The translations under genes were made by a program, and so were the position numbers. A stretch of 64,000 nucleotides of DNA, from positions 480-64,479 of IMG/VR virus record IMGVR_UViG_3300027816_000052, one strand, 5' to 3'. The stretch comes from a virus. The notes under the pieces are model-generated. The model made no database searches and had not been told where the DNA came from. It was given only the letters and a program-made list of their open reading frames with translations. Shown one piece after another: positions 156 to 40,321 of the stretch. How positions within the stretch are numbered: the stretch's first letter is position 1; each line of letters begins with the position of its first letter.

Positions 156-635
156 ATGAAAAAGATTAAATTAACAGAATCCGACCTTTATAATATTATA
201 GAGCGAGTTCTTCTTGAGCAAGAGGAAAATAATAAACGTGTTTGGAATACAACTCCAGAACGTTTTATTATGGTTCTTAATAATGTTTTTAATGGAAATT
301 CTGAAATGTTCAGAAAAATTCTTAATAAAAAATATGATAACATTATTATTAATGAAGATTTGGATTTGAGTGAATCACGAATTAAAACCTTACCTGATAA
401 TCTTAAAGTTAAAGGTTATCTTAATTTAAATTATACAAAAATAGAATCCTTACCGGATAATCTTCATGTTGAGGGGAATTTGTATTTAGCTTTTACACGA
501 ATTTATTCTTTACCGGATAATCTTCGTGTTGGAGGTAAAATCTATATTCATGGAACACTATTAGTTAGAAATAGTGATTTAGTTGCGGAATATAGAAACA
601 AACATAAAATTGAAGGATATTTTTGGTCATCATGA
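156..635 (+). CDS. LRR-like 20-aa tandem-repeat family protein, short member with 3 repeats
   Basis: N-terminus MKKIKLTESDLYNIIERVLLEQEE is shared with 25962..26669(-) and 42394..43218. Three xSLPDNLxVxGxLxL repeats. C-terminal GTLLVRNSDLVAEYRNK tail. Confidence 0.7.
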   Translation: MKKIKLTESDLYNIIERVLLEQEENNKRVWNTTPERFIMVLNNVFNGNSEMFRKILNKKYDNIIINEDLDLSESRIKTLPDNLKVKGYLNLNYTKIESLPDNLHVEGNLYLAFTRIYSLPDNLRVGGKIYIHGTLLVRNSDLVAEYRNKHKIEGYFWSS

Positions 636-1702: not shown

Positions 1703-1778
1703 GCTCCTATAGCTCAGTTGGTCAGAGCGCCAAGCTTATACCTTGGGTCTGTCACAGGTTCAAGTCCTGTTAGGAGTA
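1703..1778 (+). tRNA. tRNA-Ile (anticodon TAT as folded)
   Basis: Hand fold: acceptor GCTCCTA/TAGGAGT, D-arm GCTC...GAGC, anticodon stem CCAAG/CTTGG with loop CTTATAC, T-arm ACAGG-TTCAAGT-CCTGT, 7-nt variable loop. Confidence 0.55.
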
Positions 1779-1786
1779 CGAAATAT

Positions 1787-1860
1787 TGTGGGGTGGAGCA
1801 GATGGTTAGCTCGGAGGTCTCATAAATCTCAGGTCGCTGGTTCAAGTCCAGCCCCCGCAA
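1787..1860 (+). tRNA. tRNA-Met (anticodon CAT; could be a lysidine-modified Ile)
   Basis: Acceptor TGTGGGG/CCCCGCA, D-arm GAGC/GCTC, anticodon stem GAGGT/ATCTC with loop CTCATAA, T-arm GCTGG-TTCAAGT-CCAGC. Confidence 0.75.
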
Positions 1861-2001
1861 CAAAATGTTGATTAGTAGTTTAGTGGTTGAACTAAAAAGA
1901 AAATCTGACGCTCAGTAGCAATAAATACCACCAGTCAGCTTCGTTCTAATTAACATTTTATTTTTATTGTTCTTTGACATATTTATCTTAAAAAAATTAA
2001 T

Positions 2002-2205
2002 ATGCAAAAAATATCTTTTATTAAATTTAATTTTAAAAATGGATTAATTCATTTATTGACATTATTTTTTGGTAGTTTAATATTATTACCAATAACAGGT
2101 AATGAGATTTTTGAATTTAAAATTTGGTTCATTATTTTATTGTTTCTTAGTATCTTTATGACGTACTTCAATTATCGTGTTTGGAAAAAATTAAAAATTA
2201 AATAA
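2002..2205 (+). CDS. Hypothetical small hydrophobic protein
   Basis: 67-aa ORF with two hydrophobic stretches, between tRNA genes. Weak call. Confidence 0.3.
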   Translation: MQKISFIKFNFKNGLIHLLTLFFGSLILLPITGNEIFEFKIWFIILLFLSIFMTYFNYRVWKKLKIK

Positions 2206-2869
2206 TAATTCTTTGATTTATTATGTTTGTGATAATATCAAGATATTTTTGAGAGGTAATCTCTTTAAAATATTTTTGTGCTGATGTATCAATAACACAA
2301 AAATCAATTTTTGCGTCATGACATGCTTTTGACTTTGATTTATCATTTTCTTGAATTTGATTTAATTTTTTAATGCCATAAATTGGTTCATAGTGAAAAA
2401 TTCCATTAAGTTCAAATGCAATATTTAATGATGGAATATAAATATCTAATTCTGAGTTAATAGCTAATTTATCATTAAATTTGATATCTAGGTTTGGGTA
2501 TAAAAATTCTAACTGCGATTGAATCCAAATTTCAAGTTTTGATTTTCTGTTGCCGTGTTTTTTATTTTTATTGTTATATGTTGCGGCACAAGATTTCGAA
2601 CAAAAATGATTTATAGATCTAGAAATTTGATTATTTGCTTTGATAAATTTTTTATCACAATTAGTACATGTAACCTCTTTTCTTTTTTTTGCTGACAAAC
2701 CATTACATTGTATTGAACAAAAACGTAATTGATTTTTTTGTTTTTCAATATTATATTTAATATGTCTTTTTTCAATATAGAAAAAATTATCACAATATTC
2801 ACATATTAATCTTAACTTATCAAAATGTTTTGCATTATAATAATCAAATTCTGAATACGCTTTTTTCAT
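2198..2869 (-). CDS. Cys-rich Zn-finger protein with a C-terminal DUF559/Vsr-like endonuclease motif, a homing-endonuclease-like gene inside the tRNA cluster
   Basis: 223 aa with multiple CxxC pairs (CEYCDN, CSIQCNG, CTNCDKK, CSKSCA). C-terminus LDIYIPSLNIAFELNGIFHYEP resembles the D...E-x-(D/N)-G-x-x-H motif of Vsr/DUF559 endonucleases. Confidence 0.5.
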   Translation of the reverse strand: MKKAYSEFDYYNAKHFDKLRLICEYCDNFFYIEKRHIKYNIEKQKNQLRFCSIQCNGLSAKKRKEVTCTNCDKKFIKANNQISRSINHFCSKSCAATYNNKNKKHGNRKSKLEIWIQSQLEFLYPNLDIKFNDKLAINSELDIYIPSLNIAFELNGIFHYEPIYGIKKLNQIQENDKSKSKACHDAKIDFCVIDTSAQKYFKEITSQKYLDIITNIINQRIII

Positions 2870-2935
2870 TTATACATATATTTATATATAAATATATTAA
2901 ATTTAATTTTCGAATCTGAAGTACTTTGAAATTAT

Positions 2936-3020
2936 GGAGGATCCCACTGGCGCGGTACGTAGTCTTGAAAACTATGAGGTCGGTAATACCGATGTGAAGG
3001 TTCGAGTCCATCATCCTCCG
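2936..3020 (+). tRNA. tRNA-Ser (anticodon TGA), type II with long variable arm; D-arm fold imperfect
   Basis: Acceptor GGAGGAT/ATCCTCC, anticodon stem GTAGT/ACTAT with loop CTTGAAA, variable arm TCGGT-AAT-ACCGA, T-loop GGTTCGAGTCC. Confidence 0.5.
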
Positions 3021-3203
3021 CTAGATAAAATTTGGAAGTTTGAAATTTTAGTTGTATCTTTGTAGAGCGTGTGAAGCATGTGAGCTAAGTTATCGAGGTG
3101 CTTGGTACGATTCGCGGTCGTGTTGCGCTGGAAACCATCAAAGGTTAAAAGACGTGAAACCAAGTTAAATGGTAAAATCTGACACATTCAGCCTTAAATT
3201 TAC

Positions 3204-3276
3204 GCCACTGTAGCTCAATTGGCAGAGCACTAGTTTTGTAAACTAGCGGTTAGCGGTTCGACTCCGCTCAGTGGCT
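3204..3276 (+). tRNA. tRNA-Thr (anticodon TGT); CCA encoded at 3277-3279
   Basis: Acceptor GCCACTG/CAGTGGC, D-arm GCTC/GAGC, anticodon stem CTAGT/ACTAG with loop TTTGTAA, T-arm AGCGG-TTCGACT-CCGCT. Confidence 0.8.
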
Positions 3277-3301
3277 CCAAGAGTTCTTTGAAAAAGTTTG
3301 A

Positions 3302-3432
3302 GAAAAAGCGGAAGTACGAAAGTACGGGAAGATTGTGATAAAAAGAACAAGGAAATAGTCCCTCCCATTGCAGTCACAAGCATAATTGGGTAGAGTGGAA
3401 AGGTGAGTCCACGAACCGCTTTTTCTCATTTT
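3302..3432 (+). ncRNA. Candidate structured small RNA or long hairpin ending in a T-run
   Basis: 10-bp pairing GAAAAAGCGG (3302-3311) with CCGCTTTTTC (3416-3425) encloses about 105 nt with an internal hairpin GTGGA-aaggtgag-TCCAC. Followed by TTTTCTCATTTT. No plausible ORF; GC is locally higher. Confidence 0.25.
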
Positions 3433-3771
3433 ACATGAAAATATAAAATTAGTGAGCAAAGAGAAAGTGACTTCACCAGTCAGCGTAGTATACAACGGAA
3501 GCACGGGCAAGAAAGTAGCATGGTAGCTACCTGAAATAAAAATCGATTGCTGGGACAAAACTGAAAACGTTTAATTGGATACCCTTAAAATGAAGATATA
3601 CCTCACTAACTTTATATTAAAAATTTGTGGTCAGTACGGATTGACGTACCTAGTAAGCTGGTAAATTACATTACGAAGAAACGCTGAAGCGACTAAGAAA
3701 TGTACTAATATGTAATTATTAGTGGGTTGTTGTTAAGTCTTAGTATGTTAGTTTTTAACACCACAAAAAAA

Positions 3772-3845
3772 GCGAGTGTAGCTTAGTTGATTAAAGCGCC
3801 GTCCTTCCAAGTCGGAGATCGTCAGTTTGAGTCTGACCACTCGCT
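3772..3845 (+). tRNA. tRNA-Gly (anticodon TCC)
   Basis: Acceptor GCGAGTG/CACTCGC, D-arm GCTT/AAGC, anticodon stem CCGTC/GTCGG (one U-U) with loop CTTCCAA, T-arm GTCAG-TTTGAGT-CTGAC. Confidence 0.7.
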
Positions 3846-3931
3846 CACTAATCCCCTCTAACCTCTGAAGAAATTCAAGTTATTGGGTAAAACAGTTTCT
3901 TTTCATATTTATAGAATAAACATCTATCAAT

Positions 3932-17056: not shown

Positions 17057-17167
17057 TTTTTGTTTTTTTATATGTTTATTTGTACAATAATTATCAAAAA
17101 AGATGAAAAAGTCAAATATTTTAAAAATTTTATTTTATTTGTGATATTTATAGTAAAATAATTCATT

Positions 17168-17500
17168 ATGAGTAAAATTGTTAAACTTAAAGAAAGAGAT
17201 TTAACTGAGATAGTTAAACGTGCTTTAATCGGTAAAATGTTTATAGAAGAACAAAAAAAGGAAAAGATTGAAATACCGCAAAATTGTTTTGGCGGTCCAA
17301 AAACAGGTTTAGGTGGTTTAATTTTATTTACAACAATGTTGCAAAAAGAAGCGGATAATGGCGATATGAATAGTGAAAAATTAATTGCTGATATGAAAAC
17401 CTTTTTAAAAGGTATGAATAGAGCAAACCCCGAAATGATTGCAACGTTATTAAAAAAATATAATAAAGAAAAGTACCTGCCTTGGGTGGGTTGTTTTTAA
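17168..17500 (+). CDS. Hypothetical protein sharing the N-terminal module of the LRR-like family
   Basis: 110 aa. N-terminus MSKIVKLKERDLTEIVKRAL parallels MKKIKLTESDLYRIVRKVL of the repeat family. Confidence 0.55.
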   Translation: MSKIVKLKERDLTEIVKRALIGKMFIEEQKKEKIEIPQNCFGGPKTGLGGLILFTTMLQKEADNGDMNSEKLIADMKTFLKGMNRANPEMIATLLKKYNKEKYLPWVGCF

Positions 17501-18067: not shown

Positions 18068-18889
18068 ATGAATAATTTTGAATTTTTAAAGGAAGTACTA
18101 TCGGTACCAAGTTCTTCATATAAAGAACATTTAATGATTGAGTTTTTGGAAAAATGGTTGACTGAAAATAATATCCCCCATTATACGGATGATTTTGGAA
18201 ATGTATATGCAACAAAAAAAACGAACTTAAAGGAAGGTGAGTTTTTTCCTTGCGTAGTGTCACACACCGATACCGTACATGATATTAGTAATATTAATAT
18301 TTTAGAAAAGCAACTTCCGGATTCAGATAATATTATTAAATTAGCTCTAACGTCTGTAAATGATGATGGAATACCTAACGGTATTGGTGGTGATGATAAA
18401 TGTGGTGTTTATATTTGTCTTAGACTTTTAAAAGATTTACCGAATGTAAAAGCGGCGTTTTTTGTTAGTGAAGAAATTGGTTGTAGGGGTTCATTAAATG
18501 CTGACCCAAATTTCTTTAAAGATGTTGGTTATGCGATTCAGTTTGATGCACCAGAAAACTGGATGGTTACATATACGTGTATGGGCGTGGAATTATTTGA
18601 TATGAAATCAGAATTTTTTGATAAATGTCATAATGTTCTTACCGAAAACTTTAACCATAAAAAAGATTATCTTAAACATCCATATACAGATGTTTACGCA
18701 TTAAGAAAGAAATTTGACTTTGCTTGCATTAATATTTCATGTGGATATTACAATTATCACAGACCAAATGAATATGTTGTAGTTGATGATGTTGAGAACG
18801 CATATGATGTTGGAGTAAAGATGATTAGTGATTTGGGATGTTGTAGTTATATTTTTAATAAATCAAAAAAAACAAAATTTATGTTATAA
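18068..18889 (+). CDS. M20/M42-family metallopeptidase-like protein
   Basis: 273 aa with HTDTVHD, GIGGDDKCGV and SEEIGCRGS motifs in the order typical of M20/M42 dimetallopeptidases. TTTG-N20-TATATTTG promoter-like motif at 18015-18046. Confidence 0.5.
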   Translation: MNNFEFLKEVLSVPSSSYKEHLMIEFLEKWLTENNIPHYTDDFGNVYATKKTNLKEGEFFPCVVSHTDTVHDISNINILEKQLPDSDNIIKLALTSVNDDGIPNGIGGDDKCGVYICLRLLKDLPNVKAAFFVSEEIGCRGSLNADPNFFKDVGYAIQFDAPENWMVTYTCMGVELFDMKSEFFDKCHNVLTENFNHKKDYLKHPYTDVYALRKKFDFACINISCGYYNYHRPNEYVVVDDVENAYDVGVKMISDLGCCSYIFNKSKKTKFML

Positions 18890-18904: not shown

Positions 18905-21091
18905 TTATTTCCCCTTTTCAATTTTAACCTTATCTTTTACGAATTTTAATTTATACTTTTTCATCTCAATCATCTCACCCTTTAGAATTTCCTCGGATAT
19001 AAAATCTTCCACATATTCTTGTATTGCTCGTTTTAATGGTCTTGCACCAAACTGAGGGTCAAATCCAACTTTAGCGATGTGCTCGACCAATGAATTATCA
19101 TATTTGATAAAATATTTTAATTTATTTAATCTTTCTACCAATCTATCCAATTCAATCTTAACAATTTCCTTGACATCATCTTCTTTTAATGTATTAAAGA
19201 CAACAACCTCATCAATTCTATTTAAGAATTCTGGAGCAAAGAAATTCTTCATTTCTTTTTGAATTATATCTCGTTTAGCTTCTTCATTAGCAAATGAGTT
19301 TTTACCGAAGCCAATTCCAGAACCAAAATCTTGTATTTTTTTAACACCAAGATTTGATGTTAAAATAATTAATGAGTTTCTAAAGTTTATTTTTCTACCT
19401 AAACTATCAGTTATAAAACCTTCGTCTAAAACCCTCAATAAGATTGAGAATATTTCTTTATTTGCTTTTTCAACCTCATCAAATAAAATAACCGAATATG
19501 GTTTGTTTTTTACTTGTTCGGTTAATTGACCACCTTTATCATAACCAACATAACCGGGGGGAGCACCAACCAATCTAGATACGCTATGTTTTTCTTGATA
19601 TTCTGACATATCAATTCTAATTAAGTTATCTTCGCTACCAAAGATTTCTTTCGCCATCTGTTTAGCTAAATGAGTTTTACCAACACCACTATTACCAAGC
19701 AATATGAACGCACCAATCGGTCTATTTGGGTCTCTAATACCTAATCTATTTCTGCGAATAGCTTTCGCCATTTTTGTAATTGCTTCTTGTTGACCAACAA
19801 CTTTTTCACCCACATTCTTTTCCAAATTCAATAAATTCTTTGTATCGTCAGTGTTTAATTTGTTAATTGGTATTTTTGTCATTGTTGATACAACATCATA
19901 AACCAATTCAGTTGTAACTTCTTTTCTTTTGGTTAAAAGAGTTTCTTCAAATTTCTTTTTTTCTTCATTAAGTTTATCGACAATCTTTTTTTCTTTATCC
20001 CTTAATTCCGCAGCTTTCTCATAATCCTGTTGTTTTACAACGATTAATTTTTCTTCCTTAATTTTATGTGCTTCATCTTTAAGGTGGTTAATAATTTCCG
20101 GTAATTCAATATCTACTTGACTTCTAGCACCAACTTCATCAATAATGTCAAATGCTTTATCGGGAAATTCTCTGTCAGTTATATATCTATCAGCAAGGTT
20201 TACACATAAATCTAAAACCTCATCATTGTAACTTACTCGATGATAAAATTCATATTTATCTTTAACGTTTTTTAAAATTTCTAATGTTTCTTCTTTTGAG
20301 GGTGAATCAACAACAACTTTTTGAAATCTTCGTTCTAATGCACCATCTTTTTCAAAATTTTCACGATATTCATCTAGCGTTGTTGCACCGATACATTGAA
20401 TTTCTCCTCTTGCTAATGCTGGTTTAAAGATGTTTGACGCATCTAATGACCCAGATGAATTACCAGCACCAACTAATGTATGAATTTCATCAATAAAGAC
20501 AATTATATCGGGGTTATTTTGTAATTCTTCAAGAATAACTTTAAGACGTTCTTCAAATTGACCTCTATATTTTGTCCCAGCAACAATAGATGTTAAATCA
20601 AGTAGTACAATTCTTTTATTTTCAAGGTTTCTTGGACATTCACCTAGATAAATTTTCATAGCAAGACCTTCAACTATGGCAGTTTTACCACAATTATGTG
20701 AAGATATGCCATTTGTTAAATATTTTCTTTCCTCATCTAATACTTCTAAATCAAAAGTATCGTGAACCCCAATATATTCTTTTTCAATAACATCATGTAA
20801 TTGATTATCGTCATACCAAACTAAATCTCCAATATTAATATTCTTTAATGATAACCAATATGTGTTATTCTGTTCTTCAACTAAATTATTTGCACAATCA
20901 AAAGATGTCTCAACTAAATGGGATTCTGAACCAGAAAGCTCAACGTTATTTGATAATGTTATTTTATAACACTCTTTTTTTGTTTTTTTAAACAAATTAC
21001 CAATTAATTTGTAACCAGATGGGGTCTTTACTTTATAAGTTCCCCCGTTTTTTTCAACATCGTTAAAAAAATCTTCAATTTTTATTTTCAT
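18905..21091 (-). CDS. ClpA/ClpB-like AAA+ chaperone ATPase: C-terminal intein part plus the rest of the extein. It is in frame with 21098..21391 across a TAA.
   Basis: 728 aa. Begins inside a mini-intein that ends ...GVHDTFDLEV...TNGISSHN. Extein then resumes at CGKTAIVEGLA (Walker A). Second AAA+ module GNSGVGKTHLAKQMA...RIDMSEYQEKHSVSRLVGAPPGYVGY. Confidence 0.75.
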   Translation of the reverse strand: MKIKIEDFFNDVEKNGGTYKVKTPSGYKLIGNLFKKTKKECYKITLSNNVELSGSESHLVETSFDCANNLVEEQNNTYWLSLKNINIGDLVWYDDNQLHDVIEKEYIGVHDTFDLEVLDEERKYLTNGISSHNCGKTAIVEGLAMKIYLGECPRNLENKRIVLLDLTSIVAGTKYRGQFEERLKVILEELQNNPDIIVFIDEIHTLVGAGNSSGSLDASNIFKPALARGEIQCIGATTLDEYRENFEKDGALERRFQKVVVDSPSKEETLEILKNVKDKYEFYHRVSYNDEVLDLCVNLADRYITDREFPDKAFDIIDEVGARSQVDIELPEIINHLKDEAHKIKEEKLIVVKQQDYEKAAELRDKEKKIVDKLNEEKKKFEETLLTKRKEVTTELVYDVVSTMTKIPINKLNTDDTKNLLNLEKNVGEKVVGQQEAITKMAKAIRRNRLGIRDPNRPIGAFILLGNSGVGKTHLAKQMAKEIFGSEDNLIRIDMSEYQEKHSVSRLVGAPPGYVGYDKGGQLTEQVKNKPYSVILFDEVEKANKEIFSILLRVLDEGFITDSLGRKINFRNSLIILTSNLGVKKIQDFGSGIGFGKNSFANEEAKRDIIQKEMKNFFAPEFLNRIDEVVVFNTLKEDDVKEIVKIELDRLVERLNKLKYFIKYDNSLVEHIAKVGFDPQFGARPLKRAIQEYVEDFISEEILKGEMIEMKKYKLKFVKDKVKIEKGK

Positions 21092-25249: not shown

Positions 25250-26007
25250 TATTGTACGAATATAAATTTATTTCCTTCAAGTTTATAATTAAATCTAGCT
25301 TTATTCTCATCAATTACATAATATAAGTCACCTTCAATACCAAAGACTTCATTACCTTTAAAATCATTTGCCCAATCATTTTTAACAAATGTTTTAAATA
25401 ATTCAAAGTTGTTATTATTTGTTTGTTGTGGTGGATTATTTGTTTGTTGTGGCGAATTATCATATTTGTCTTTAAGATTTGAAAAGACATCAACAAAATT
25501 AATCCATTCATCGTCATAATCAATATCATCATCAATCCACGTAAAAAAATTATCGCCTTGACCATATCGTGTTTCAAAAAATGCATTAACCGCACATAAA
25601 TCACCAAAAGTCCCTACTGATAATTTATCTAACCCCTCTTTTACTTTATCTAAATCTGTTCCAGTTGGAATTCCAAGAGTAGCCCTTGAAAATGCATCAT
25701 AAAAAGTACGTGCAATAATTTTAATCTCTTCATCAGTAAATGTTTTAGTTTTTAATACTTCTGTTGTGCAAGCATCTAAAATTTTTTCAACATCTTCGGG
25801 ATGACCTTCATTTAAAAGACCTTTTATTTTTTCCTCATTTTCAGTTAACGTCATATCATTTTTATATGACATAAGGAGTTTAACTCTATTAAGAGATTCC
25901 AAACCCTCATCTAATTTATATTTTTCCATAATTAAAAAGTTTTTTATATAAATATATCGACTTATAATAAAGTATTTGCTTTTCCGCGAGTTAAATCTGT
26001 TGACCAT
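25249..26007 (-). CDS. Hypothetical protein
   Basis: 252-aa ORF. PQQTNN duplication near the middle. Confidence 0.45.
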   Translation of the reverse strand: MVNRFNSRKSKYFIISRYIYIKNFLIMEKYKLDEGLESLNRVKLLMSYKNDMTLTENEEKIKGLLNEGHPEDVEKILDACTTEVLKTKTFTDEEIKIIARTFYDAFSRATLGIPTGTDLDKVKEGLDKLSVGTFGDLCAVNAFFETRYGQGDNFFTWIDDDIDYDDEWINFVDVFSNLKDKYDNSPQQTNNPPQQTNNNNFELFKTFVKNDWANDFKGNEVFGIEGDLYYVIDENKARFNYKLEGNKFIFVQ

Positions 26008-26669
26008 TTATTTTTTTGGTCAATTGTATTTGCTTTACCTCTTTTTATTGGATAAGTTTCAGACCATTTTTGTTTTGGATTAGTCGGATTTGCCGGTCCT
26101 CTTTTTACACCGCTATCCCATTTTGTTACCGCAGGATATGCTGGGTTTTCACCACTTGTTGGTTCTTGTTCTTTTAATTCACTGCTTTTTTTTAAAATTT
26201 TTCCTATTATACTACCGCCAATTTTAATCCCATCTGGTAAATTTTTTATTTTTGTCCCACCAATTCTCAAATCACCACTAACATTAAGATCGTTAGGTAA
26301 AAATTTAATTCCAGTACCAGATAAATCTAAATTACCTATAACATTAAGATTTTTTGGTAAAGCAATTAATTGTTCACAACCATATAAAATAAAAGACCCA
26401 TTTATGGTAAGATTATCTGGTAAAAATTCAATATCCCCAAAGATGAATTGAATTCCTCCATTAATAATAACCTTATCATATTGTTGATTAAAAACCCTTG
26501 TTAATTTCTCAGAATCATTTCTAAATACATTTTTAAGAATCATTTTAAAATATTCTGGATTCTTATTAAAAATTCTTCTGTTATTTTTTTCTTCTTCTTG
26601 CTCAAGAAGGACCTTTCTAACAATCCTATATAAATCTGATTCTGTTAATTTTATCTTTTTCATAACCAT
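25962..26669 (-). CDS. LRR-like repeat family protein, degenerate-repeat member
   Basis: N-terminus MVMKKIKLTESDLYRIVRKVLLEQEEE is identical in style to 42394..43218. Degenerate LPDNL/LPNDL/LPDGI repeats. Confidence 0.6.
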   Translation of the reverse strand: MVMKKIKLTESDLYRIVRKVLLEQEEEKNNRRIFNKNPEYFKMILKNVFRNDSEKLTRVFNQQYDKVIINGGIQFIFGDIEFLPDNLTINGSFILYGCEQLIALPKNLNVIGNLDLSGTGIKFLPNDLNVSGDLRIGGTKIKNLPDGIKIGGSIIGKILKKSSELKEQEPTSGENPAYPAVTKWDSGVKRGPANPTNPKQKWSETYPIKRGKANTIDQKNKWSTDLTRGKANTLL

Positions 26670-26699: not shown

Positions 26700-27062
26700 T
26701 TAAAATATAACAGCGGTAGGAATCTTATCCGGATTATCCAAATAAAATTCATTTATAAATGTCTTTAAATCTTCTTCTTGAATATCGTATATGTTTGTAT
26801 CATTATCATAATGTGAGTCGTCCATATCCTCATCACTATATTCGTTGTTTACTTCCTCAAAAATATCATAATCATCAGAAAAAACGTTAAACCCATATTC
26901 TTCAATTAATGAAATATCAAAAGTGTCTTCTCTTATTTCAGAATCAGAATCTGTAGCAAATCTAAATTGCACTTCAATTGTTTTCGAAGATTCAATTATG
27001 TACTGCGAAACAATTTCTTTAACTTCCATATCAATACTTCTTAATTCGATTGAACATTTCAA
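26700..27062 (-). CDS. Acidic hypothetical protein
   Basis: 120 aa, D/E-rich. Confidence 0.4.
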   Translation of the reverse strand: MKCSIELRSIDMEVKEIVSQYIIESSKTIEVQFRFATDSDSEIREDTFDISLIEEYGFNVFSDDYDIFEEVNNEYSDEDMDDSHYDNDTNIYDIQEEDLKTFINEFYLDNPDKIPTAVIF

Positions 27063-27462
27063 TGATTAAATTTCTTTGAGTGTTGAAACTTTCTTTAAGG
27101 TCTTCATCAATCTCTTCAAAGGTTTCAGCTTCACACTGCTCACAAACCTCATCTTCCTCAACATAATCAAATTTATCACCAAGTTCCGCTGTTTTATAGT
27201 TACATTCACAAACTTCTTCATTTAACCCGCATTGTTCACAAACCTTAACCTTTTCTTCATTTATTCCGAAGTTTTTGTATGTACTAACATTACCTTTATT
27301 ACTTAAAGTAATACCTCCCTTATCTTTTGCTAAATCTTCAATTGTTAAAGGTTGTGAGTTTGATGTTTTGCTTAAAGTGACATAACCATCATAAAGAGTC
27401 TTATGTTGATTTTTAATTGCGTCTCTTTCTTCGTTTGAGATGTTAAAAAAGTATGCGTTCAT
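27031..27462 (-). CDS. Cys-motif hypothetical protein
   Basis: 143 aa with CEQCGLNEEVCECN and CEQCEAE, possibly Zn-binding. Confidence 0.45.
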   Translation of the reverse strand: MNAYFFNISNEERDAIKNQHKTLYDGYVTLSKTSNSQPLTIEDLAKDKGGITLSNKGNVSTYKNFGINEEKVKVCEQCGLNEEVCECNYKTAELGDKFDYVEEDEVCEQCEAETFEEIDEDLKESFNTQRNLIIEMFNRIKKY

Positions 27463-27504
27463 GGTAATAAATTTAATAATAAATATGCGTTAATTAGAAA
27501 AAAA

Positions 27505-27774
27505 TTATTCCAAAATTTTAATAATAAGTTCGGACGTTCCTTTTATTACTCGATGAAACATTTCTTTAGGAATAAAGATTTTTTCATTTTTAGCCAAACA
27601 TTTTGGTAATTCATTATCCAATTGGAGTTTCCAATCGTTTTCATTTAATGCAATTACAGTCCTATCCTTTTTATCACGATGCCATTTTAACTCAATAGGG
27701 TCAATATCATCGGAAAATTTCCGAATCATAACATCATTTTCTATTATTTGTGAATAAGGTCTTTCCATTACCAA
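27505..27774 (-). CDS. Hypothetical protein
   Basis: 89-aa ORF. Confidence 0.4.
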   Translation of the reverse strand: MVMERPYSQIIENDVMIRKFSDDIDPIELKWHRDKKDRTVIALNENDWKLQLDNELPKCLAKNEKIFIPKEMFHRVIKGTSELIIKILE

Positions 27775-30537: not shown

Positions 30538-30552
30538 GTTTATTATTTCTTG

Positions 30553-30627
30553 TAGTTCCTTTCGGACTCGAACCGAAAACCTTTTCCACGTCAAGGAAAC
30601 GCTCTGAACCAATTGAGCTAAGGAACT
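30553..30627 (-). tRNA. tRNA-Val (anticodon GAC)
   Basis: Acceptor AGTTCCT/AGGAACT, D-arm GCTC/GAGC, anticodon stem TTTCC/GGAAA with loop TTGACGT, T-arm TTCGG-TTCGAGT-CCGAA. Paralog of tRNA-Val(TAC) at 35585..35659. Confidence 0.75.
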
Positions 30628-30756
30628 GTTAACAAAGGGGGTTAATGATAACCCCATTTGTTTTCTACCAACCTAAATCTTTCGAAACTTTGCCATGTCA
30701 CCTGTAAATAGTGACACTTATTCAGAAGTTGGTGGACCCGGTGAGGCTCTTTTTTG

Positions 30757-30826
30757 TACTCCGTGAGAGATTCGAACTCTCAGCCTTCTCGTTAGGAGTG
30801 AGATGCTCATCCAGTTGAGACGGGGC
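30757..30826 (-). tRNA. Degenerate tRNA-Arg-like gene (anticodon CCT as folded); possible pseudogene
   Basis: Good T-arm GAGAG-TTCGAAT-CTCTC and anticodon arm TCTCA-CTCCTAA-CGAGA. Acceptor GCCCCGT/ACGGAGT has a C-A mismatch and the D region is too short. A tRNA 3'-end remnant ...CACCGGGTCCACCA lies just downstream (30730-30749). Confidence 0.35.
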
Positions 30827-30831
30827 ATGAA

Positions 30832-31335
30832 CTATCTATATCTGTTCTCCACGTACCAATATATGGCTTTATTTTTCACCTCAACACGTTCCTTGACTAT
30901 ACCACGAACTCCAGATGAAGTAGCATATTTTCTTGATAGAGACTTGTCAGACAATATAAGTTGTATTACATATCCACTCCACACACTATCATAGAGTCCG
31001 TCCGACTCCACAACTTCTTCCTCTTGTGTTGTTATTGGAGAGAATTCTGGAAGTCTACGAAACTCTTTCTCTGTTCCATCTTCCGCGTAGAAGCGGAAAC
31101 CATCACTCTCGGCAATAATGGTCAAATCACCTTCCATAAGATCTATCAGACAAGATTGTATACCAACCCTGACCTTGTATAATCCAGATTCAAAATGCTT
31201 AGTGATTTCTCCTTTTCCATATTCAACTTCTTTCAATTGATGATCTATTACAACAATTCTTAGATCTTCACTAGGAGCTTTCACGCGCAACTCATACTCG
31301 ACAATGGTTTTAGTTGGTATTGTGGTCACTCTCAT
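30832..31335 (-). CDS. Hypothetical protein with higher GC than surroundings
   Basis: 167-aa ORF. Local GC is visibly above the window average. Confidence 0.5.
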   Translation of the reverse strand: MRVTTIPTKTIVEYELRVKAPSEDLRIVVIDHQLKEVEYGKGEITKHFESGLYKVRVGIQSCLIDLMEGDLTIIAESDGFRFYAEDGTEKEFRRLPEFSPITTQEEEVVESDGLYDSVWSGYVIQLILSDKSLSRKYATSSGVRGIVKERVEVKNKAIYWYVENRYR

Positions 31336-31399
31336 TTGGCAGCGTCTTTTATGATGTGCTTGACCTCTTCGCTGGAGAAGCCCATTATGTGCTTGAGTA

Positions 31400-32593
31400 T
31401 CATTTTTGTTTCAAATCTAAGTTAAGATCTTTAGCCGATTTCATCATCATAATTTCCATGAAATTTGCCGCCGCATTGCTAGAACCACTTGAGTTACCAC
31501 TCATATATTGAGGAACAACATTTCCTTGATATTTCGAGAAGGCGTTTGCCCAATATTCTTGTGATTTAAGCCAAGCATCCAACTTTTGCTCAAGAGCGCC
31601 ATTAGCAGACATTACAAGACGTTTCTTTTCAGCTTCACCTTGACCTTCAAGAATTTGTTTTTCTTTATTAAGTCTAGCAGTTTCAACATCAAGTTCAGCA
31701 ACTCGTTTACGCGATTCAGCCTCAGTCACTTGTTTTGCTTTAATAACCTCTTGATCCCACTTAGCTTTAGCTGCTTCAGCTTCACCTTGTTTTGCGATGG
31801 TAATAGCATCTTGTTCGGCTTTTTTAGAATTTGCAATTGCCAATTGTACACTCATTAATGCTTGTTGTTGATTTTGAATTTGCTTTTCAACGGTCGCATC
31901 ATATGTAATACCATTAATTGAAATATTATAGAGTCTAATTCCATATCCAGCAATTGGTGATTCTTCTTGTCGAATTGGTTGACCGGGAGTCTTTTCAACA
32001 ATCTCAACTTTGGTTACTAATTTTTCCTCACCAGTCAATGGATCAGCTTCTTTAACCTCAACTTGTTTAGTTTTATATACACCTCTAGAAGCTTGATCTT
32101 CAATATAGAAAATCAAATCATTTCTTTTTTCCGCATACGACTCTTTAGATGTCATAAGCGGTCCAGTCATGTAAACTGATTTTTCAATGTTAGTTTTAAT
32201 TAACTGATTCTCCAACGCTTCTTGCGAACCAAATGTTGAGTGTAATTTAATAATTTGTTCAGAAGATAAGGGAAGATCATAACGAACCGATCCTGAAATT
32301 GTTGCATGTCCACCATCATTCCATTTTACGGCAATTGATTTATCTGTTTCACCCTCCTCTTTTGGAGAAGAAAACCAAAATTGATTTGATTTACGATAAT
32401 GTGTTGCCCTACCAAATAATTGCCAAACCCAACCCGGTTCAGTATATGTATGAAGATTACCATCAAATGGGTCTTGAATAACAACAACTTCTCCAGCATC
32501 AACATCTTCCCAAATAAGGGGAACAAAGATTAGACCAAGAACAATAAATACGCCAATAACAATTGCACTAATAGATTTTTTAAAGTTTTCCAT
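31400..32593 (-). CDS. SPFH/band-7 (HflK/C, stomatin-like) domain membrane protein
   Basis: 397 aa. N-terminal TM helix ISAIVIGVFIVLGLIFVPLIW, then a long A/E/K/Q-rich coiled-coil segment typical of SPFH proteins. Confidence 0.55.
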   Translation of the reverse strand: MENFKKSISAIVIGVFIVLGLIFVPLIWEDVDAGEVVVIQDPFDGNLHTYTEPGWVWQLFGRATHYRKSNQFWFSSPKEEGETDKSIAVKWNDGGHATISGSVRYDLPLSSEQIIKLHSTFGSQEALENQLIKTNIEKSVYMTGPLMTSKESYAEKRNDLIFYIEDQASRGVYKTKQVEVKEADPLTGEEKLVTKVEIVEKTPGQPIRQEESPIAGYGIRLYNISINGITYDATVEKQIQNQQQALMSVQLAIANSKKAEQDAITIAKQGEAEAAKAKWDQEVIKAKQVTEAESRKRVAELDVETARLNKEKQILEGQGEAEKKRLVMSANGALEQKLDAWLKSQEYWANAFSKYQGNVVPQYMSGNSSGSSNAAANFMEIMMMKSAKDLNLDLKQK

Positions 32594-32599
32594 GTTTTT

Positions 32600-32866
32600 T
32601 TAAATTTTTGTTTTGTTTTTAATTTTATTAATTTTATTTACAGTTTGATTAACTTCATCATTCACCACATTATACTTCTCAACCGCCTTATCAACTTTTT
32701 CTTCCAGTTCATCTATCGTTGATGAGTGTTGGATTTTTTCTTTATTTTTCTTTTTAAGAAACCAAAAAAATTCTAATTTGGGAATAAAAAGAGGTAGAAT
32801 TATTTGTGTTATAATTGTTAGTATGCTTATAACTGTTAATAAAAATATTATAATTATTTTAGCCAT
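32600..32866 (-). CDS. Small membrane protein
   Basis: 88 aa with N-terminal TM helix. Confidence 0.4.
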   Translation of the reverse strand: MAKIIIIFLLTVISILTIITQIILPLFIPKLEFFWFLKKKNKEKIQHSSTIDELEEKVDKAVEKYNVVNDEVNQTVNKINKIKNKTKI

Positions 32867-33071
32867 TTTGGTTTTTAAATTTAAAAATTATATCATTTAT
32901 ATCATTTCTTATTGATTCCATATCATCTATGTCAAGATAAAATGAAAATGAATCATCACCTTGACTACAGGTTAACCATATTTCATCATCACCACCTTGA
33001 ATAAAAAATTCCAAGTCTTTATCTCCTTGTGAAAATTTATATGTTTTTATTGTTTTCATTTTATAGTACAA
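32859..33071 (-). CDS. Hypothetical small protein
   Basis: 70-aa ORF. Confidence 0.35.
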   Translation of the reverse strand: MYYKMKTIKTYKFSQGDKDLEFFIQGGDDEIWLTCSQGDDSFSFYLDIDDMESIRNDINDIIFKFKNQNG

Positions 33072-33100
33072 ATATAGTATATGTTTTTAACATAAACAAA

Positions 33101-33286
33101 TCAAATGAAAATTTCACCAAATAAGGAAATATATTCATTTTTTGGTATTTTACAATAAACATCACCAACCCAAAAAAATACATCGTCACCAATTTCATTC
33201 GGTTCGGTGATATTCCATTTTTTAACAATATTGACAGGTATTTTGTCGTAATCTAAATTAGGGAAAGCAACATGTACGTAGTCCAT
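33101..33286 (-). CDS. Hypothetical small protein
   Basis: 61-aa ORF. Confidence 0.35.
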   Translation of the reverse strand: MDYVHVAFPNLDYDKIPVNIVKKWNITEPNEIGDDVFFWVGDVYCKIPKNEYISLFGEIFI

Positions 33287-33365
33287 TTTTTTTTAGTTTA
33301 CACAAAGATAATAACAAATATTTAAATTTCCAATAACTGATAATATTTATTTTAAAAGTTGGTAT

Positions 33366-34151
33366 ATGAGAAATCTAATCAAAAAAGTTTTGCGTGAATT
33401 TGTATTAAAAGAAGCGGAAGAGACAGACCACGCAAAATGTCGTTATGTTAATAGAGTTGCGAATGAAAGAAATCATAAAACAACAAATGTTAAGGACAAA
33501 ATTGGTAAAGAAGGAATTGAAAACATTAAATTTATCATCGAACTTGTTAAAAAAATAGATTTTCCAAAAAATATCGATATTGCAATTAATTTAGCTTATT
33601 CACCATCAAGAGATGTTAACAATCCAGAAGGTTTTGAAAACGCAAAAGGATTTTATTTTAATGACCCTAATGATAATTGTACTAAAAAAGAAAATATTGA
33701 ACCTAGCTGGGGACATTATTTGTGGTTAATAATAAGAGATAATTCTATCACAACAATAATGATTCATAGAACCAAACCAAAAGATTTAAGAGAGGTTAAT
33801 ATAGATAGATTAATAAATAATTTAAATAACTATTTTGGACTTAATATTAAAGAAAAAGAACTTTCGTCGGCTGAAAATTTAAAACAAATAGATTTAACAA
33901 ATGAGAGACTTTTCTTTAAGATGATTAGTAAACCAGAAAAAAAATCTGAGGAATCTCCTTTAAAAAATGAAGAAATACTTCTTGTTAAACAAAAAAAATA
34001 TGTTATTGATAAAATTAAAAAAACAATTCATCCAAAAAATAAACCAAAAGAAATACAGAAAATAGAAGAATTTATCAATTTAATTTTAAATTTAGAACCT
34101 TTTACCCCTGAAGATGAGAAAGCTATTGAATACTTAATTTCTTTGATTTGA
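33366..34151 (+). CDS. Hypothetical protein with an LxE-type N-terminal module
   Basis: 261 aa. N-terminus MRNLIKKVLREFVLKEAEE resembles the KVLLEQEE motif of the repeat family. Confidence 0.5.
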   Translation: MRNLIKKVLREFVLKEAEETDHAKCRYVNRVANERNHKTTNVKDKIGKEGIENIKFIIELVKKIDFPKNIDIAINLAYSPSRDVNNPEGFENAKGFYFNDPNDNCTKKENIEPSWGHYLWLIIRDNSITTIMIHRTKPKDLREVNIDRLINNLNNYFGLNIKEKELSSAENLKQIDLTNERLFFKMISKPEKKSEESPLKNEEILLVKQKKYVIDKIKKTIHPKNKPKEIQKIEEFINLILNLEPFTPEDEKAIEYLISLI

Positions 34152-34439
34152 TTTTATAATTAATCTGTCATAATGCGTGAAATAACCCCGTTTATTAGCC
34201 TCATCTAATATTTCATCAGTTGTTGGTCTTGGTTGTTTTTCCAAATAATATTTGATATTTTTTTCATCCATATATTCTCTAATGGTTTCTTCAACATTAC
34301 TAAATAAGCGATAAATATTATCAGCTAAAATATCAGCATCAACCAATCCGGTTACATTTTCCATCATATCATCAAAAACAAAATTTGATGATTCATCCTT
34401 TTTAATAATCAAGATATAATAGTCGTATTTCATCTGCAA
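34134..34439 (-). CDS. Hypothetical protein
   Basis: 101-aa ORF. Confidence 0.45.
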   Translation of the reverse strand: MQMKYDYYILIIKKDESSNFVFDDMMENVTGLVDADILADNIYRLFSNVEETIREYMDEKNIKYYLEKQPRPTTDEILDEANKRGYFTHYDRLIIKSNQRN

Positions 34440-34885
34440 TGATAATCCGCCGCTTTAGTTGCGATTTGAATATTTGGTTTTACATTAACTTGATACCCCA
34501 ATGAATTCGCCCACCCCTTTGTTGCACTGATTAATTGATTACTTTTATAAAATTCATCCTCATTATAATCCATATCTAATTCAAGTTTTAGACTGACATT
34601 AACTTTGTTTTTAAACCATTCCGCAATTTCAATCGTGCTTTCAGCTTCCTTCCAAAGTCTAGTCCATAAATCATTAATTCTATTGATTCTTTCTTTTGTG
34701 AAAATATAATGGACACCCCTAGTACCATAACGATAGGCGATAACGGAAACATAAACGGTTTCATTTGACACGTTTTGTGAATCAGTACCGATATGGATTT
34801 TTACATCAGGATTTTCCCTGATAACCTCAAGAGTATGTTTTACAACATCTACTGGAGTTCCATCTAATTTTCTAAACACTTTCAT
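34430..34885 (-). CDS. Hypothetical protein
   Basis: 151-aa ORF, 10-nt overlap with the downstream gene. Confidence 0.45.
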   Translation of the reverse strand: MKVFRKLDGTPVDVVKHTLEVIRENPDVKIHIGTDSQNVSNETVYVSVIAYRYGTRGVHYIFTKERINRINDLWTRLWKEAESTIEIAEWFKNKVNVSLKLELDMDYNEDEFYKSNQLISATKGWANSLGYQVNVKPNIQIATKAADYHCR

Positions 34886-34897
34886 TTTATAGTTATT

Positions 34898-35254
34898 TTA
34901 TTCGTCTACACTGATGAGGGGGAATTCAATTTTAAGTCTATAATGAATAAAATCATTCATATCTTCCACTAAATCAAAATATTTTCTATAAGACTCACCA
35001 TTTGACATTTTTATTTTTAAAAATGGTTTGTAATAAACAACATAATCCTCAATATATAAGTTTTTGTTTTTAAGAATCTCTTCTTCTGTTATAAAAAAAG
35101 TTCCATTGTAATACCAATCAGCGTAATAAAATCCTTCTTTTCTTTCTTTACAAAATAAACTTTTTTTTCTGCGATTTTGCCAAACAAATTTATCATTTTC
35201 TATTTTTTCAAATTTTCTAATACTACAAATTTGTTTGATATTAATTTCTTCCAT
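34898..35254 (-). CDS. Hypothetical protein
   Basis: 118-aa ORF. Confidence 0.45.
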   Translation of the reverse strand: MEEINIKQICSIRKFEKIENDKFVWQNRRKKSLFCKERKEGFYYADWYYNGTFFITEEEILKNKNLYIEDYVVYYKPFLKIKMSNGESYRKYFDLVEDMNDFIHYRLKIEFPLISVDE

Positions 35255-35399
35255 TTTTAAAAGTTTGGTACAAAGATATGAAAAGTTTTATGAAAAAAAA
35301 AATTGCAACGATTTTAGCCTACGTTAATATTTTGTGGGAAGAGCTTATCGTTATTAAGTTTCGCTTATTATACCAACACAATTTTTAATTCATAATACA

Positions 35400-35475
35400 T
35401 GGTGGACCGGAAGGGATTCGAACCCTCATCCTCCTGAGTGCAAATCAGGTGCTCATCCAGTTGAGCTACCAGCCC
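35400..35475 (-). tRNA. tRNA-Ala (anticodon TGC), CCA encoded
   Basis: Reverse complement GGGCTGG-TA-GCTC-AACTGGAT-GAGC-A-CCTGA-TTTGCAC-TCAGG-AGGAT-GAGGG-TTCGAAT-CCCTT-CCGGTCC-A-CCA. Confidence 0.8.
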
Positions 35476-35584
35476 ATGTTCCCGTTTTTCTTCATCATTT
35501 AGTTCACCACCCAGATGAACAAGTGGTGGATTTTGCTTTTGGAAGTCTGCATTACAGACCGTCACCACGGGAAAACCAACGCAG

Positions 35585-35659
35585 TAGTTCCTGTGTGACT
35601 TGAACACACGCCCTTTCGAATGTAAATCGAACGCTCTAAACCAACTGAGCTAAGGAACT
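35585..35659 (-). tRNA. tRNA-Val (anticodon TAC)
   Basis: Acceptor AGTTCCT/AGGAACT, D-arm GCTC/GAGC, anticodon stem TTCGA/TCGAA with loop TTTACAT, T-arm GTGTG-TTCAAGT-CACAC. Confidence 0.75.
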
Positions 35660-35667
35660 ATATTTCG

Positions 35668-35739
35668 CACCCCCTGAAGAATTCGAATCCTCACCAACGA
35701 TGTTGGAGATCGTTACTCTACCAATTGAGCTAAAGGGGT
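35668..35739 (-). tRNA. tRNA-Trp (anticodon CCA)
   Basis: Acceptor ACCCCTT/AGGGGGT, D-arm GCTC/GAGT, anticodon stem ACGAT/ATCGT with loop CTCCAAC, T-arm GAGGA-TTCGAAT-TCTTC. Confidence 0.7.
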
Positions 35740-35749
35740 ATGTATTTTG

Positions 35750-35825
35750 GGTGAATAACGAGACTCGAACTCGCAAAAATCCGGGACCACAATCCGGAGT
35801 GTATACCAATTCCACCATATTCACC
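35750..35825 (-). tRNA. tRNA-His (anticodon GTG) with G-1
   Basis: Extra 5' G pairs with discriminator C. Acceptor GTGAATA/TATTCAC. Anticodon stem CCGGA/CCCGG (A-C closing pair) with loop TTGTGGT. T-arm GCGAG-TTCGAGT-CTCGT. Confidence 0.6.
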
Positions 35826-35833
35826 ATAATTCG

Positions 35834-35912
35834 TACTCCCGGTGAGAATCGAACTCACACCCTTTCGGATCTGTTCCTAAAACAGACGCGGCTACCGTTA
35901 CGCCACAGGAGT
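35834..35912 (-). tRNA. tRNA-Leu (anticodon TAG), short type-II variable arm
   Basis: Acceptor ACTCCTG/CGGGAGT, anticodon stem TCTGT/ACAGA with loop TTTAGGA, 11-nt variable region, T-arm GTGAG-TTCGATT-CTCAC. Confidence 0.55.
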
Positions 35913-35963
35913 GTTTAACATCACAAAGATATAACTTTATTTTCTTATCTCCAAATTAAACTG

Positions 35964-36035
35964 AGGTCGAAGTGAGAATCGAACTCACGTAAGAAGTTTT
36001 GCAGACTTCCGCCTAAACCACTCGACCATTCGACC
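35964..36035 (-). tRNA. tRNA-Cys (anticodon GCA)
   Basis: Acceptor GGTCGAA/TTCGACC, anticodon stem GAAGT/ACTTC with loop CTGCAAA, T-arm GTGAG-TTCGATT-CTCAC. Confidence 0.75.
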
Positions 36036-36221
36036 TTACTTTTCACCTAATTTTCTAATAATACCTCCCTTAGCTTCATACCAAGTACCCTGATAATTAA
36101 ATTCAAATCCGGTATCTCTCATACAAATACCCATAAATTCACCGTCTCTTGTTTTTAAACCAACCCCTGAAAAAACATCTTCAAGAATTATTTCACCGTT
36201 TTCATCTGTTGTTAATTTCAT
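36036..36221 (-). CDS. Small hypothetical protein (61 aa) between tRNA-Cys and tRNA-Arg; start trimmed to avoid the tRNA
   Basis: Listed ORF 36036..36296 would overlap tRNA-Arg. The internal ATG at 36219-36221 gives MKLTTDENGEIILEDVF... Confidence 0.4.
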   Translation of the reverse strand: MKLTTDENGEIILEDVFSGVGLKTRDGEFMGICMRDTGFEFNYQGTWYEAKGGIIRKLGEK

Positions 36222-36238
36222 AATTTTAATTTTTTTTG

Positions 36239-36310
36239 TATCCCCCGAAGGATTCGAACCCTCACCAACTGAGTCGAAATCAGGTATGCTATCCATTACA
36301 CTAGAGGGAC
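36239..36310 (-). tRNA. tRNA-Arg (anticodon TCG)
   Basis: Acceptor GTCCCTC/GGGGGAT (two G-U), D-arm GTGT/GCAT, anticodon stem CCTGA/TCAGT (one mismatch) with loop TTTCGAC, T-arm GAGGG-TTCGAAT-CCTTC. Confidence 0.65.
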
Positions 36311-36570
36311 TTTTTCTCTTTTCTTTTTTTCCATTCTACAGCAAGTGCTGCTCCAATAAAAGCGCCTAACATTGCAGCACCAAATAAACGTGTATCATTT
36401 ACATAATTTACAGTGGTGAAAGCACCAAATAAAACAATTAATGCTGACCATATTCCGGATGCGATAGTTTTTCTTTCCTCCACTTTAATAAAATATAAAG
36501 TCCATGCAATATCAGCTAAAATCATGGAAAACATAACCAGCAAAAATTTTAATTCAAAGGGTATATTCAT
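36301..36570 (-). CDS. Small membrane protein
   Basis: 89 aa with 3 hydrophobic helices and a basic C-terminus KKRKEKKSL. Confidence 0.5.
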   Translation of the reverse strand: MNIPFELKFLLVMFSMILADIAWTLYFIKVEERKTIASGIWSALIVLFGAFTTVNYVNDTRLFGAAMLGAFIGAALAVEWKKRKEKKSL

Positions 36571-37013
36571 CTTTTTAATAATTTATCACATTTATTTTTC
36601 CAATTTGATGAGAGACATGAAATTGGTGTTACTTTTGTAAGTTGATTAATTAATCTAATTTCTTGTGGATTATCATCCAAATGAAATACAAAATCATTTC
36701 CATTCTTTTTAAACCACCAAGCCTTTGGGTCGTGGTTTGTAAAAATCACTCGTTCCCTTGGGATTCCTAAATCTTTCGCCACCAAAAACAAATCTTCTTC
36801 ATTTGACCACCAAAGAACATCATCGTCTCTTTTAAAAGTTTCATCATCAGGATATTTCTTTCTGAAAAATTCTTTTGGATTTTCCGGTCTTGAGGTAACA
36901 ATCCATACCTCAATGTTGGAATCTTCAATTAATTCCTTACAATAATTTTGTATGAACAGCGAATGACCAAGACAATCATCAAAATCAAAACTTACTTTTT
37001 TCATGCTAACCAA
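36567..37013 (-). CDS. HAD-superfamily hydrolase-like protein
   Basis: 148 aa. N-terminal VSFDFDDCLG matches HAD motif I (hhhhDxDx[TV]). Confidence 0.5.
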   Translation of the reverse strand: MVSMKKVSFDFDDCLGHSLFIQNYCKELIEDSNIEVWIVTSRPENPKEFFRKKYPDDETFKRDDDVLWWSNEEDLFLVAKDLGIPRERVIFTNHDPKAWWFKKNGNDFVFHLDDNPQEIRLINQLTKVTPISCLSSNWKNKCDKLLKR

Positions 37014-39510: not shown

Positions 39511-39526
39511 TATTATTAATTTTTAG

Positions 39527-40221: not shown

Positions 40222-40238
40222 TTTGATTTTTTTATATG

Positions 40239-40310: not shown

Positions 40311-40321
40311 AAAAGAAATTG

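Follow-up and report, generated by a model that had tools for sequence, protein, structure and literature searches.

The shared N-terminus and its carriers

Why do several proteins of one phage begin with nearly the same short peptide, and is that peptide a leader of the kind that directs proteins into the T4 head? The window analyzed here, meaning the whole 64,000-nucleotide stretch of DNA (G+C 31%), comes from an uncultured T4-like giant phage, for which megablast found no close cultured relatives. In the first-pass annotation, five or more otherwise unrelated proteins were described as sharing an N-terminus comparable to the capsid-targeting sequences of T4. Six-frame profile scans support this for four ORFs of the window, the sole matches, namely three LRR paralogs starting at 156, 26663, and 42400 and a 110-aa protein starting at 17168. 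The answer favored below, with a probability of roughly 0.6, is that the shared segment (the module) is a propeptide for capsid targeting as in T4, non-homologous to T4's own sequence and removed by a gp21-type protease. The carriers are as follows:

156-218, + strand: module of LRR paralog 1, MKKIKLTESDLYNIIERVLLE then Q; predicted cut after E21; profile E = 4e-12
156-635, + strand: LRR paralog 1, whole gene
26601-26663, - strand: module of LRR paralog 2, MKKIKLTESDLYRIVRKVLLE then Q
25962-26663, - strand: LRR paralog 2, whole gene
42400-42462, + strand: module of LRR paralog 3, MKKIKLTESDLYRIVRKVLLE then Q
42400-43218, + strand: LRR paralog 3, whole gene
17168-17251, + strand: divergent module of the 110-aa protein, MSKIVKLKERDLTEIVKRALIGKMFIEE then Q
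17168-17500, + strand: 110-aa protein, whole gene; helical body without kinship to the LRR paralogs
3-146, + strand: fourth LRR paralog, 3' end only, cut by the window start

With a profile built from viral-contig N-termini, the three LRR proteins score E = 3e-13 to 4e-12 and the 17168 protein 1e-4, the runner-up in the window being at 0.015; with a profile of the three paralogs the 17168 protein is the top match, yet at E = 0.047 only. Its module starts with MSKIVKLKERDLTEIVKRAL and ends with FIEE, followed by Q, and among the 11 homologs of its family E28 is invariant, with I, V, or L two residues ahead in every one. The 110-aa protein is also known from a contig of 256 kb and from a number of freshwater metagenomes, and freshwater samples that contain this phage include JGI 3300031963 and 3300005525 and ENA ERZ27247957. 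The fourth LRR paralog, complete at L260:9293-9988 of the same phage, begins with MKKIKLTESDLYRIIKQVLFE followed by Q and carries the module, and a fifth lies approximately 9 kb further upstream.

Two further proteins that had been counted with this group do not belong to it, as the ORF at 33366 (MRNLIKKVLREF) has profile E-values of 5.8 and 18 and the N-terminus of the scaffold protein (57567) one of 1.3. A second tag class, L-R-E-x-x-L-x-E, considered for 33366, gave 6 N-terminal matches among 4,083 ORFs (2 distinct, both dubious) and a single relative, and was dropped. The description of the carriers as otherwise unrelated holds within the window for the body of the 17168 protein, the other three being paralogs of one another, and position 25962, previously given as a module site, is where an ORF of the minus strand stops, its N-terminus lying at 26663 (26669 counting MVM). 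An in-frame ATG is present at both 26669 and 42394, six nucleotides before the LRR starts (ATG GTT ATG), where it overlaps a promoter-like box (TATTTATGGTTATG). Since the extension upstream of MKK differs between homologs (MVM, MDM, MNM, MIFMIM), translation of these two genes probably starts at the Met of MKK, and their mRNA may have almost no leader.

Anatomy of the module and selection on the peptide

The consensus reads M-K-K/R-I/V-I/V-R/K-L-T-E-S-D-L-x-R-I-V-K/R-R-V-I-x-E, with a length of 21-22 residues (28 in the 17168 family) and a mean net charge of +3. Its end is sharp: amino-acid entropy is 0.9 bits at E22 versus 3.2-4.1 bits from residue 23 onward, and in 227 of 229 proteins the module ends with (I/L/V/M)-x-E, a motif found in 18% of control windows. 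In a variant with four additional helix residues, the terminal (I/L/V/M)-x-E is shifted by four residues too. The terminal motifs in the window are VLLE followed by Q (three times) and FIEE followed by Q (17168). Of the several L-x-E sites pointed out earlier, KLTE, KLKE, and DLTE are internal to the module, and it is VLLE of the LRR proteins that sits at the conservation boundary. In the AlphaFold2 model of paralog 3 (42400), residues 8-23 form a helix at pLDDT of approximately 70 and the LRR solenoid exceeds 92, and in that of the 17168 protein a helix at 9-23 is followed by residues 24-31 at pLDDT <50, such that the predicted site falls in a low-confidence linker between the helix and the confident body.

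At the invariant residues L7, T8, and L12 every synonymous codon is in use, codon entropy being 1.2-1.7 bits at the third position of invariant residues and near 0 at the first and second, and module copies of one genome share approximately 78% of their DNA sequence. Selection therefore acts on the module at the level of the peptide. Its position is largely terminal, as 239 of 258 profile matches in the sampled loci begin at Met1, with a Met a few residues away in most of the others, and 125 of the 141 newly listed library-wide matches lie at residue 1 (14 further ones within 12 residues). A second, internal module occurs besides the N-terminal one in proteins P0140, P0145, P0157, P0158, P0182, P0191, and P0168, often without Met-Lys-Lys (e.g. 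YGKLTEADLARIVKRVIKEQ), so that the module is not strictly N-terminal; such two-module proteins may be fused cassettes or two-cargo precursors.

Proteins with the pattern ..YMFFSNLEQ.KRQ...GHDWA.DH... and a Cys-rich basic tail (the YMFFSNL family, with no member in the window) carry a full or shortened module, in which (I/L)-x-E is nearly always kept, also where the module is truncated. They are encoded at loci L178-L252, less than approximately 10 kb from the protease gene and on the opposite strand, and at L009, L029, L032, and L064.

Two assignments of the segment were rejected. A ribbon-helix-helix domain does not fit, since conservation ends past the first helix with no conserved helix B and there is no Pfam match, and neither does a Sec, Tat, or lipoprotein signal peptide, the sequence reading as a charged amphipathic segment without a hydrophobic run, twin arginine, or lipobox.

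Distribution outside the window

A word-indexed search with the first 70 aa returned only 6 candidates and was replaced by an exhaustive profile search, in which the profile of the window's four N-termini matched 1,260 protein clusters at E <= 0.001 among 1.84 billion cluster representatives. In 1.46 Mb of sampled viral loci, 235 distinct module proteins were found (median length 133 aa), and their bodies past residue 28, long enough in 226 cases, fall into 171 BLAST clusters, 136 of which are singletons. Only 13 Pfam families were recognized among 150 module proteins, including peptidoglycan-binding, LysM, NUDIX, SAM lyase, and a few others, with some cargo bodies having peptidoglycan-binding, LysM, or endolysin-like domains. 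Since 57 of the 120 best LRR homologs have the module and the rest begin with unrelated N-termini, the module is a separable add-on. The usual module gene is a stand-alone cassette consisting of a terminator-like hairpin, the ATATTTAT box, and the ATG; tandem arrays are common, with 7 genes in approximately 6 kb at locus L119 and 5 at L028, and the modules of one genome have a genome-specific flavor.

A strict DNA pattern occurs at at least 120 viral-contig loci, the chance expectation by our own estimate being <0.01 occurrences. In bacterial and archaeal genome sequence (596 Gb) it gave 14 matches, mostly Bacteroidota and mostly metagenome-assembled bins, with none of the 14 in the genome of a cultured isolate. 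As far as these searches reach, the module is phage-restricted. It matches no family in Pfam, PHROGs, or NCBIfam, and tblastn with a 23-aa consensus against 50,697 records of cultured phages gave no match at E = 10, at the limited sensitivity of so short a query. It is likewise absent from 150 of the 160 kb of immuto, the nearest cultured T4-like Flavobacterium phage, and from the 83 kb of T4 that were scanned, ipI-III and alt included. No paper was returned by a full-text literature search for the core string 'LTESDL'. Leaders of the T4 kind are already known; the module as a sequence family, and its scale, appear to be undescribed.

Head genes and the candidate processing protease

The head genes of the window are arranged as follows:

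52080-55220, + strand: gp20 portal (Portal_T4, Pfam), with an intein and HNH endonuclease insert
55248-56496, + strand: two small genes, 235 and 156 aa, in the T4 gene 67/68 position; assigned by position only
56507-57229, + strand: gp21-type prohead serine protease (Pfam Peptidase_S77); predicted processing enzyme
57567-59114, + strand: scaffold-like protein in the gp22 position, very acidic (pI 4.3; 149 D+E in 515 aa)
59138-60997, + strand: gp23-type major capsid protein (Pfam Gp23, E = 5e-71)
59138-59317, + strand: capsid N-terminal propeptide, predicted to end in LINE, then AAST (E60)

The order of portal, two small genes, protease, acidic scaffold, and gp23-type capsid gene is that of T4, and a T4-type large terminase is also encoded in the window (Pfam). 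The portal ORF, with its intein, has 1046 aa versus 524 in T4. No family match was obtained for the 235-aa and 156-aa genes, or for the scaffold-like protein in Pfam and PHROGs. The proposal that a gp21-like protease is encoded at 56507-57229 is borne out by a Peptidase_S77 score of 78.8 bits against a cutoff of 27 and by 36% identity to T4 gp21, with which the ELNHP, SSRG, and D motifs (His, Ser, Asp) align. T4 gp21 itself has the motif LIE-9 near its N-terminus (PMC9026906), and the window protease has LIE-17 near its own.

The similarity of the capsid protein to T4 gp23 lies outside the propeptide, where a comparison by eye sets INKWDKLGFLEG against LNKWKPLLEG and LYENQ against IFENQ of T4. 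An L(I/L)xE site followed by A is kept in the 28 relatives that reach it, with variable sequence directly after. The closest records of this protein, at 42-46% identity, are those of Microcystis phage Mel-JY01, Flavobacterium phage immuto, and two unannotated huge phages. The ORF immediately following the capsid gene (61072-62544, + strand) has HNH/endonuclease VII-like and Mom-like regions and occupies the place of the homing endonuclease segD in T4.

Relatives of the protease were found at >580 viral-contig loci, the best 80 of these being 73-94% identical. Homologs of the protease are present in nine module loci and homologs of gp23 in nine, these being short loci that reach the head genes. 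Four loci (L007, L014, L120, and L141) combine a protease homolog with longer, divergent module genes of an 'ESV' form, and a module gene and the protease occur together on one 295-kb contig. Among the matches listed for the 112 large ORFs that neighbor module genes (25 of 77 Pfam families), the only structural families are Portal_T4 and Gp23.

A promoter-like box upstream of module and head genes

The box, (C/G)ATATTTAT, keeps a constant spacing of approximately 24 nt to start codons. Its sites in the window are the following:

17144-17151, + strand: ATATTTAT box, 24 nt before the 17168 start codon
56483 (protease), 57542 (scaffold), 55220 (235-aa head gene), 44505 (tail lysozyme): ATATTTAT box, other sites
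3905 (beta-helix protein), 42388, 26674 (- strand): ATATTTAT box, other sites

The box abuts the start codons of two LRR genes (42400 and 26663), and a copy with one mismatch is found approximately 25 nt upstream of 156. Of the 229 module genes, 160 (70%) have the box in the 60 nt before their start, the background rate being 31%, with a peak at -21 to -26 and often after a terminator-like hairpin. In relatives it precedes the protease gene in 47 of 47 cases, the 235-aa head gene in 40 of 40, the scaffold gene in 34 of 43, the tail lysozyme gene in 18 of 18, the head completion gene in 3 of 3, and the baseplate wedge gene in 6 of 11. It was not found upstream of RecA, exonuclease, NrdA, NrdF, and primase homologs (2 of 3 primase upstreams have TTGACA-type boxes), DnaB homologs being the exception among replication genes with the box in 5 of 7. 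Many genes of unknown function also have it upstream. The box may be a late promoter. As a side observation, the core of the box, TATTTATA, reads as the T4 late promoter TATAAATA on the opposite strand.

Near the module gene at 17168, a group of genes between 18068 and 21391 is without the box:

18068-18889, + strand: M20/M42-like peptidase
18905-21091, - strand: ClpB/ClpC-like double-AAA ATPase

A 97-aa gene adjoins this pair, and homologs of the genes of the region recur in about 14-17 module-bearing loci.

The LRR bodies

The proteins that had been called LRR-like are true LRR solenoids by AlphaFold2 and Foldseek. Those encoded at 156-635, 25962-26663, and 42400-43218 consist of repeating LxxLxLxxN-type units forming a curved solenoid (AlphaFold2 pLDDT 93.5), and their homologs match Pfam LRR families. 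The top solved-structure match of the 42400-43218 body is PDB 8z5u_0, an unnamed 180-residue chain in a cryo-EM structure of a polar flagellar motor, with 34% identity and a TM-score of 0.72 on the target. Among the closest solved folds are also the LRR domains of SspH1 and IpaH (E from 8e-5, TM 0.4-0.5). The solenoid fold is common to the window paralogs and to injected type III secretion effectors such as SspH1, IpaH, SlrP, and YopM. The likeness is only a generic LRR similarity at 15-20% identity; the window proteins are without an E3-ligase domain, and their proposed delivery route is a different one. In the 41-kb Edwardsiella phage Edno5, an LRR body encoded at 26924-27667 is 50% identical to a window paralog.

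Comparison with known leader systems

In T4, gp21 cleaves after the Glu of L/I-X-E, and the first 10 residues of IPIII are enough for head targeting (PMC9026906); the internal proteins of T-even phages are diverse, with only the targeting sequence conserved in common (PMC3012670). The T4 record gives such N-termini as MKTYQEFIAE then A, ...STITE then A, and MELITE then L. The likeness of the module to these sequences, as suggested previously, stands with regard to its N-terminal position, its (I/L/V/M)-x-E end, and its occurrence on unrelated small proteins, and fails with regard to sequence, for which neither the profile nor a comparison by eye with MKTYQEFIAE shows similarity. Like the leaders of IPI, IPII, IPIII, and Alt, the module is short, lies at the extreme N-terminus, and ends in (L/I)-x-E, and in both phages the carriers are small, diverse, poorly conserved, and sometimes clustered. 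T4 and the window phage also have in common an S77 protease, a scaffold in the gp22 position, and a gp23-type capsid protein in the same order. The module differs from the T4 leader in its length (21-22 residues, or 28 in the 17168 family, versus 6-19), in being basic where the T4 leader is slightly acidic, and in its much stronger conservation. It is also carried far more widely, with at least 6 genes in approximately 74 kb of the window phage and >1,000 protein clusters overall as compared with about five T4 proteins. The stronger conservation and the greater length suggest that its partner could be a different and specific one.

In the giant phages phiKZ, 201phi2-1, and SPN3US, head and ejection proteins have N-terminal propeptides; many head proteins are cut after the Glu of a three-residue motif, and prohead targeting is the presumed role of the propeptides (PMC5694885, PMC9026906). 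Unlike the module, these propeptides are mostly >100 residues long and have no single shared tag, their sites are S/A-x-E (S80 protease) as opposed to I/L/V two residues before the Glu, and both the protease family and the phage lineage differ from those of the window phage. Encapsulin cargo-loading peptides are another case in which a short conserved peptide brings unrelated cargo into an HK97-fold shell. These, however, are usually C-terminal, are not known to be removed by proteolysis, and are non-viral.

Proposed mechanism

In the model considered here, module genes would be transcribed together with the head genes, and the leader of a newly made protein, a basic strand plus amphipathic helix, would dock it on the core of the assembling prohead, perhaps on the very acidic scaffold (57567-59114), around which core the capsid shell would then close. 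The gp21-type protease would cleave after the Glu of the terminal (I/L/V)-x-E, leaving the mature protein free inside the head, from where it would enter the host cell with the DNA. The injected cargo would comprise the LRR paralogs and the 110-aa protein as well as hundreds of further small and variable proteins. We infer docking, cleavage, packaging, and injection of the module proteins, and the acidic scaffold is a putative docking partner of the basic module.

A wider reading, to which we give slightly less than even odds, is that the 22-residue tag labels, like an address, the full set of proteins that a large group of uncultured T4-like giant phages injects. More than 1,000 families of fast-evolving small proteins would then owe their entry into the head to one conserved leader and would reach the host together with the DNA. 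The cargo might include, with the same reserve, LRR proteins, peptidoglycan binders, a SAM lyase, and a NUDIX enzyme, and the hosts would probably be Bacteroidota of freshwater and gut.

If this holds, the module set would be a phage counterpart of an effector set defined by a secretion signal, readable from sequence. If the module is a head-loading leader, the T4 scheme, in which many cargos have a single leader, would have been reinvented and much expanded in a distant branch, and the injected proteins of these uncultured giant phages could be listed from sequence alone, which would directly point out candidate anti-defense and host-takeover factors. The tag could give hundreds of 'hypothetical' proteins their first annotation and, provided that the model is correct, would offer a compact means of packaging foreign proteins in phage heads.

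Competing explanations

The main rival to the propeptide reading is that the segment is not removed and is instead retained as a docking handle, the strand and helix of which bind many proteins to one hub of the phage or host, such as the phage ClpB/ClpC-like ATPase, a chaperone, the membrane, or a host complex. We regard this as unlikely, although it would accommodate a conservation that is very high for a mere leader, the internal second copies, and the genome-specific flavor of the modules, which is expected if they co-evolve with a single partner. The ClpB-like ATPase and the M20/M42 peptidase, which adjoin module genes in 16-17 loci and at 17168, also speak in its favor, but this neighborhood may equal mere conserved gene order, and its genes lack the box. 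A retained handle leaves unexplained, moreover, both the end of conservation at (I/L/V)-x-E, which is kept in truncated modules, and the box that module genes have in common with head genes. A different possibility is that the peptide has no targeting function, the shared 5' end being a side effect of cassettes that duplicate and recombine or of the translation-start context. The stand-alone cassettes of hairpin, ATATTTAT box, and ATG, the frequent tandem arrays (L119, L028), and the paralogy of three window copies are what such a process would leave, but the use of all synonymous codons (with third-position entropy of 1.2-1.7 bits and the other positions near 0), the merely 78% or so DNA identity within a genome, and the retention of the tag across 1,260 clusters make it very unlikely.

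An export or membrane-targeting signal is remoter still. A few cargo bodies do have peptidoglycan-binding, LysM, or endolysin-like domains, which act outside the cytoplasm; the segment, however, is charged and amphipathic and has no hydrophobic core, twin arginine, or lipobox, and the NCBIfam TatA match of a sequence from another viral contig is weak (E = 0.012, 16 bits versus a cutoff of 121). The type IX signal of Bacteroidota is C-terminal, the window having one on another protein (37300-38817), and the tag was not found in bacterial isolate genomes. The chance that a generic amphipathic helix simply recurs in an AT-rich genome, which had been named at the outset as an explanation that would overturn the proposal, is negligible and is refuted for the four carriers. 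The starts of 33366 and of the scaffold are indeed of such a loose kind, but only four window ORFs match, the next one scoring many orders of magnitude worse, and neither the at least 120 viral loci with the strict pattern against <0.01 expected nor the 1,260 library matches at E <= 0.001 would arise in this way.

Other features of the source phage

The CHU_C type IX secretion sorting domain of the 505-aa protein encoded at 37300-38817 (- strand) suggests that the host of the window phage belongs to the Bacteroidota. The part of this phage that lies upstream of the window has a ribonucleotide reductase gene with an intein and a LAGLIDADG insert, accompanied by another LAGLIDADG ORF (L260:1261-6681); counting the portal intein as well, the phage is rich in selfish elements. 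The window encodes 22 tRNA genes in three groups, at 1703-3846 (+ strand) and 30552-41547 (- strand), 13 of them in a minus-strand run between 35400 and 41547. An SPFH/Band 7 protein of 397 aa is encoded at 31400-32593 (- strand), and a 663-aa protein at 44534-46525 (+ strand) combines M23 peptidase, peptidoglycan-binding, and tail-lysozyme domains.
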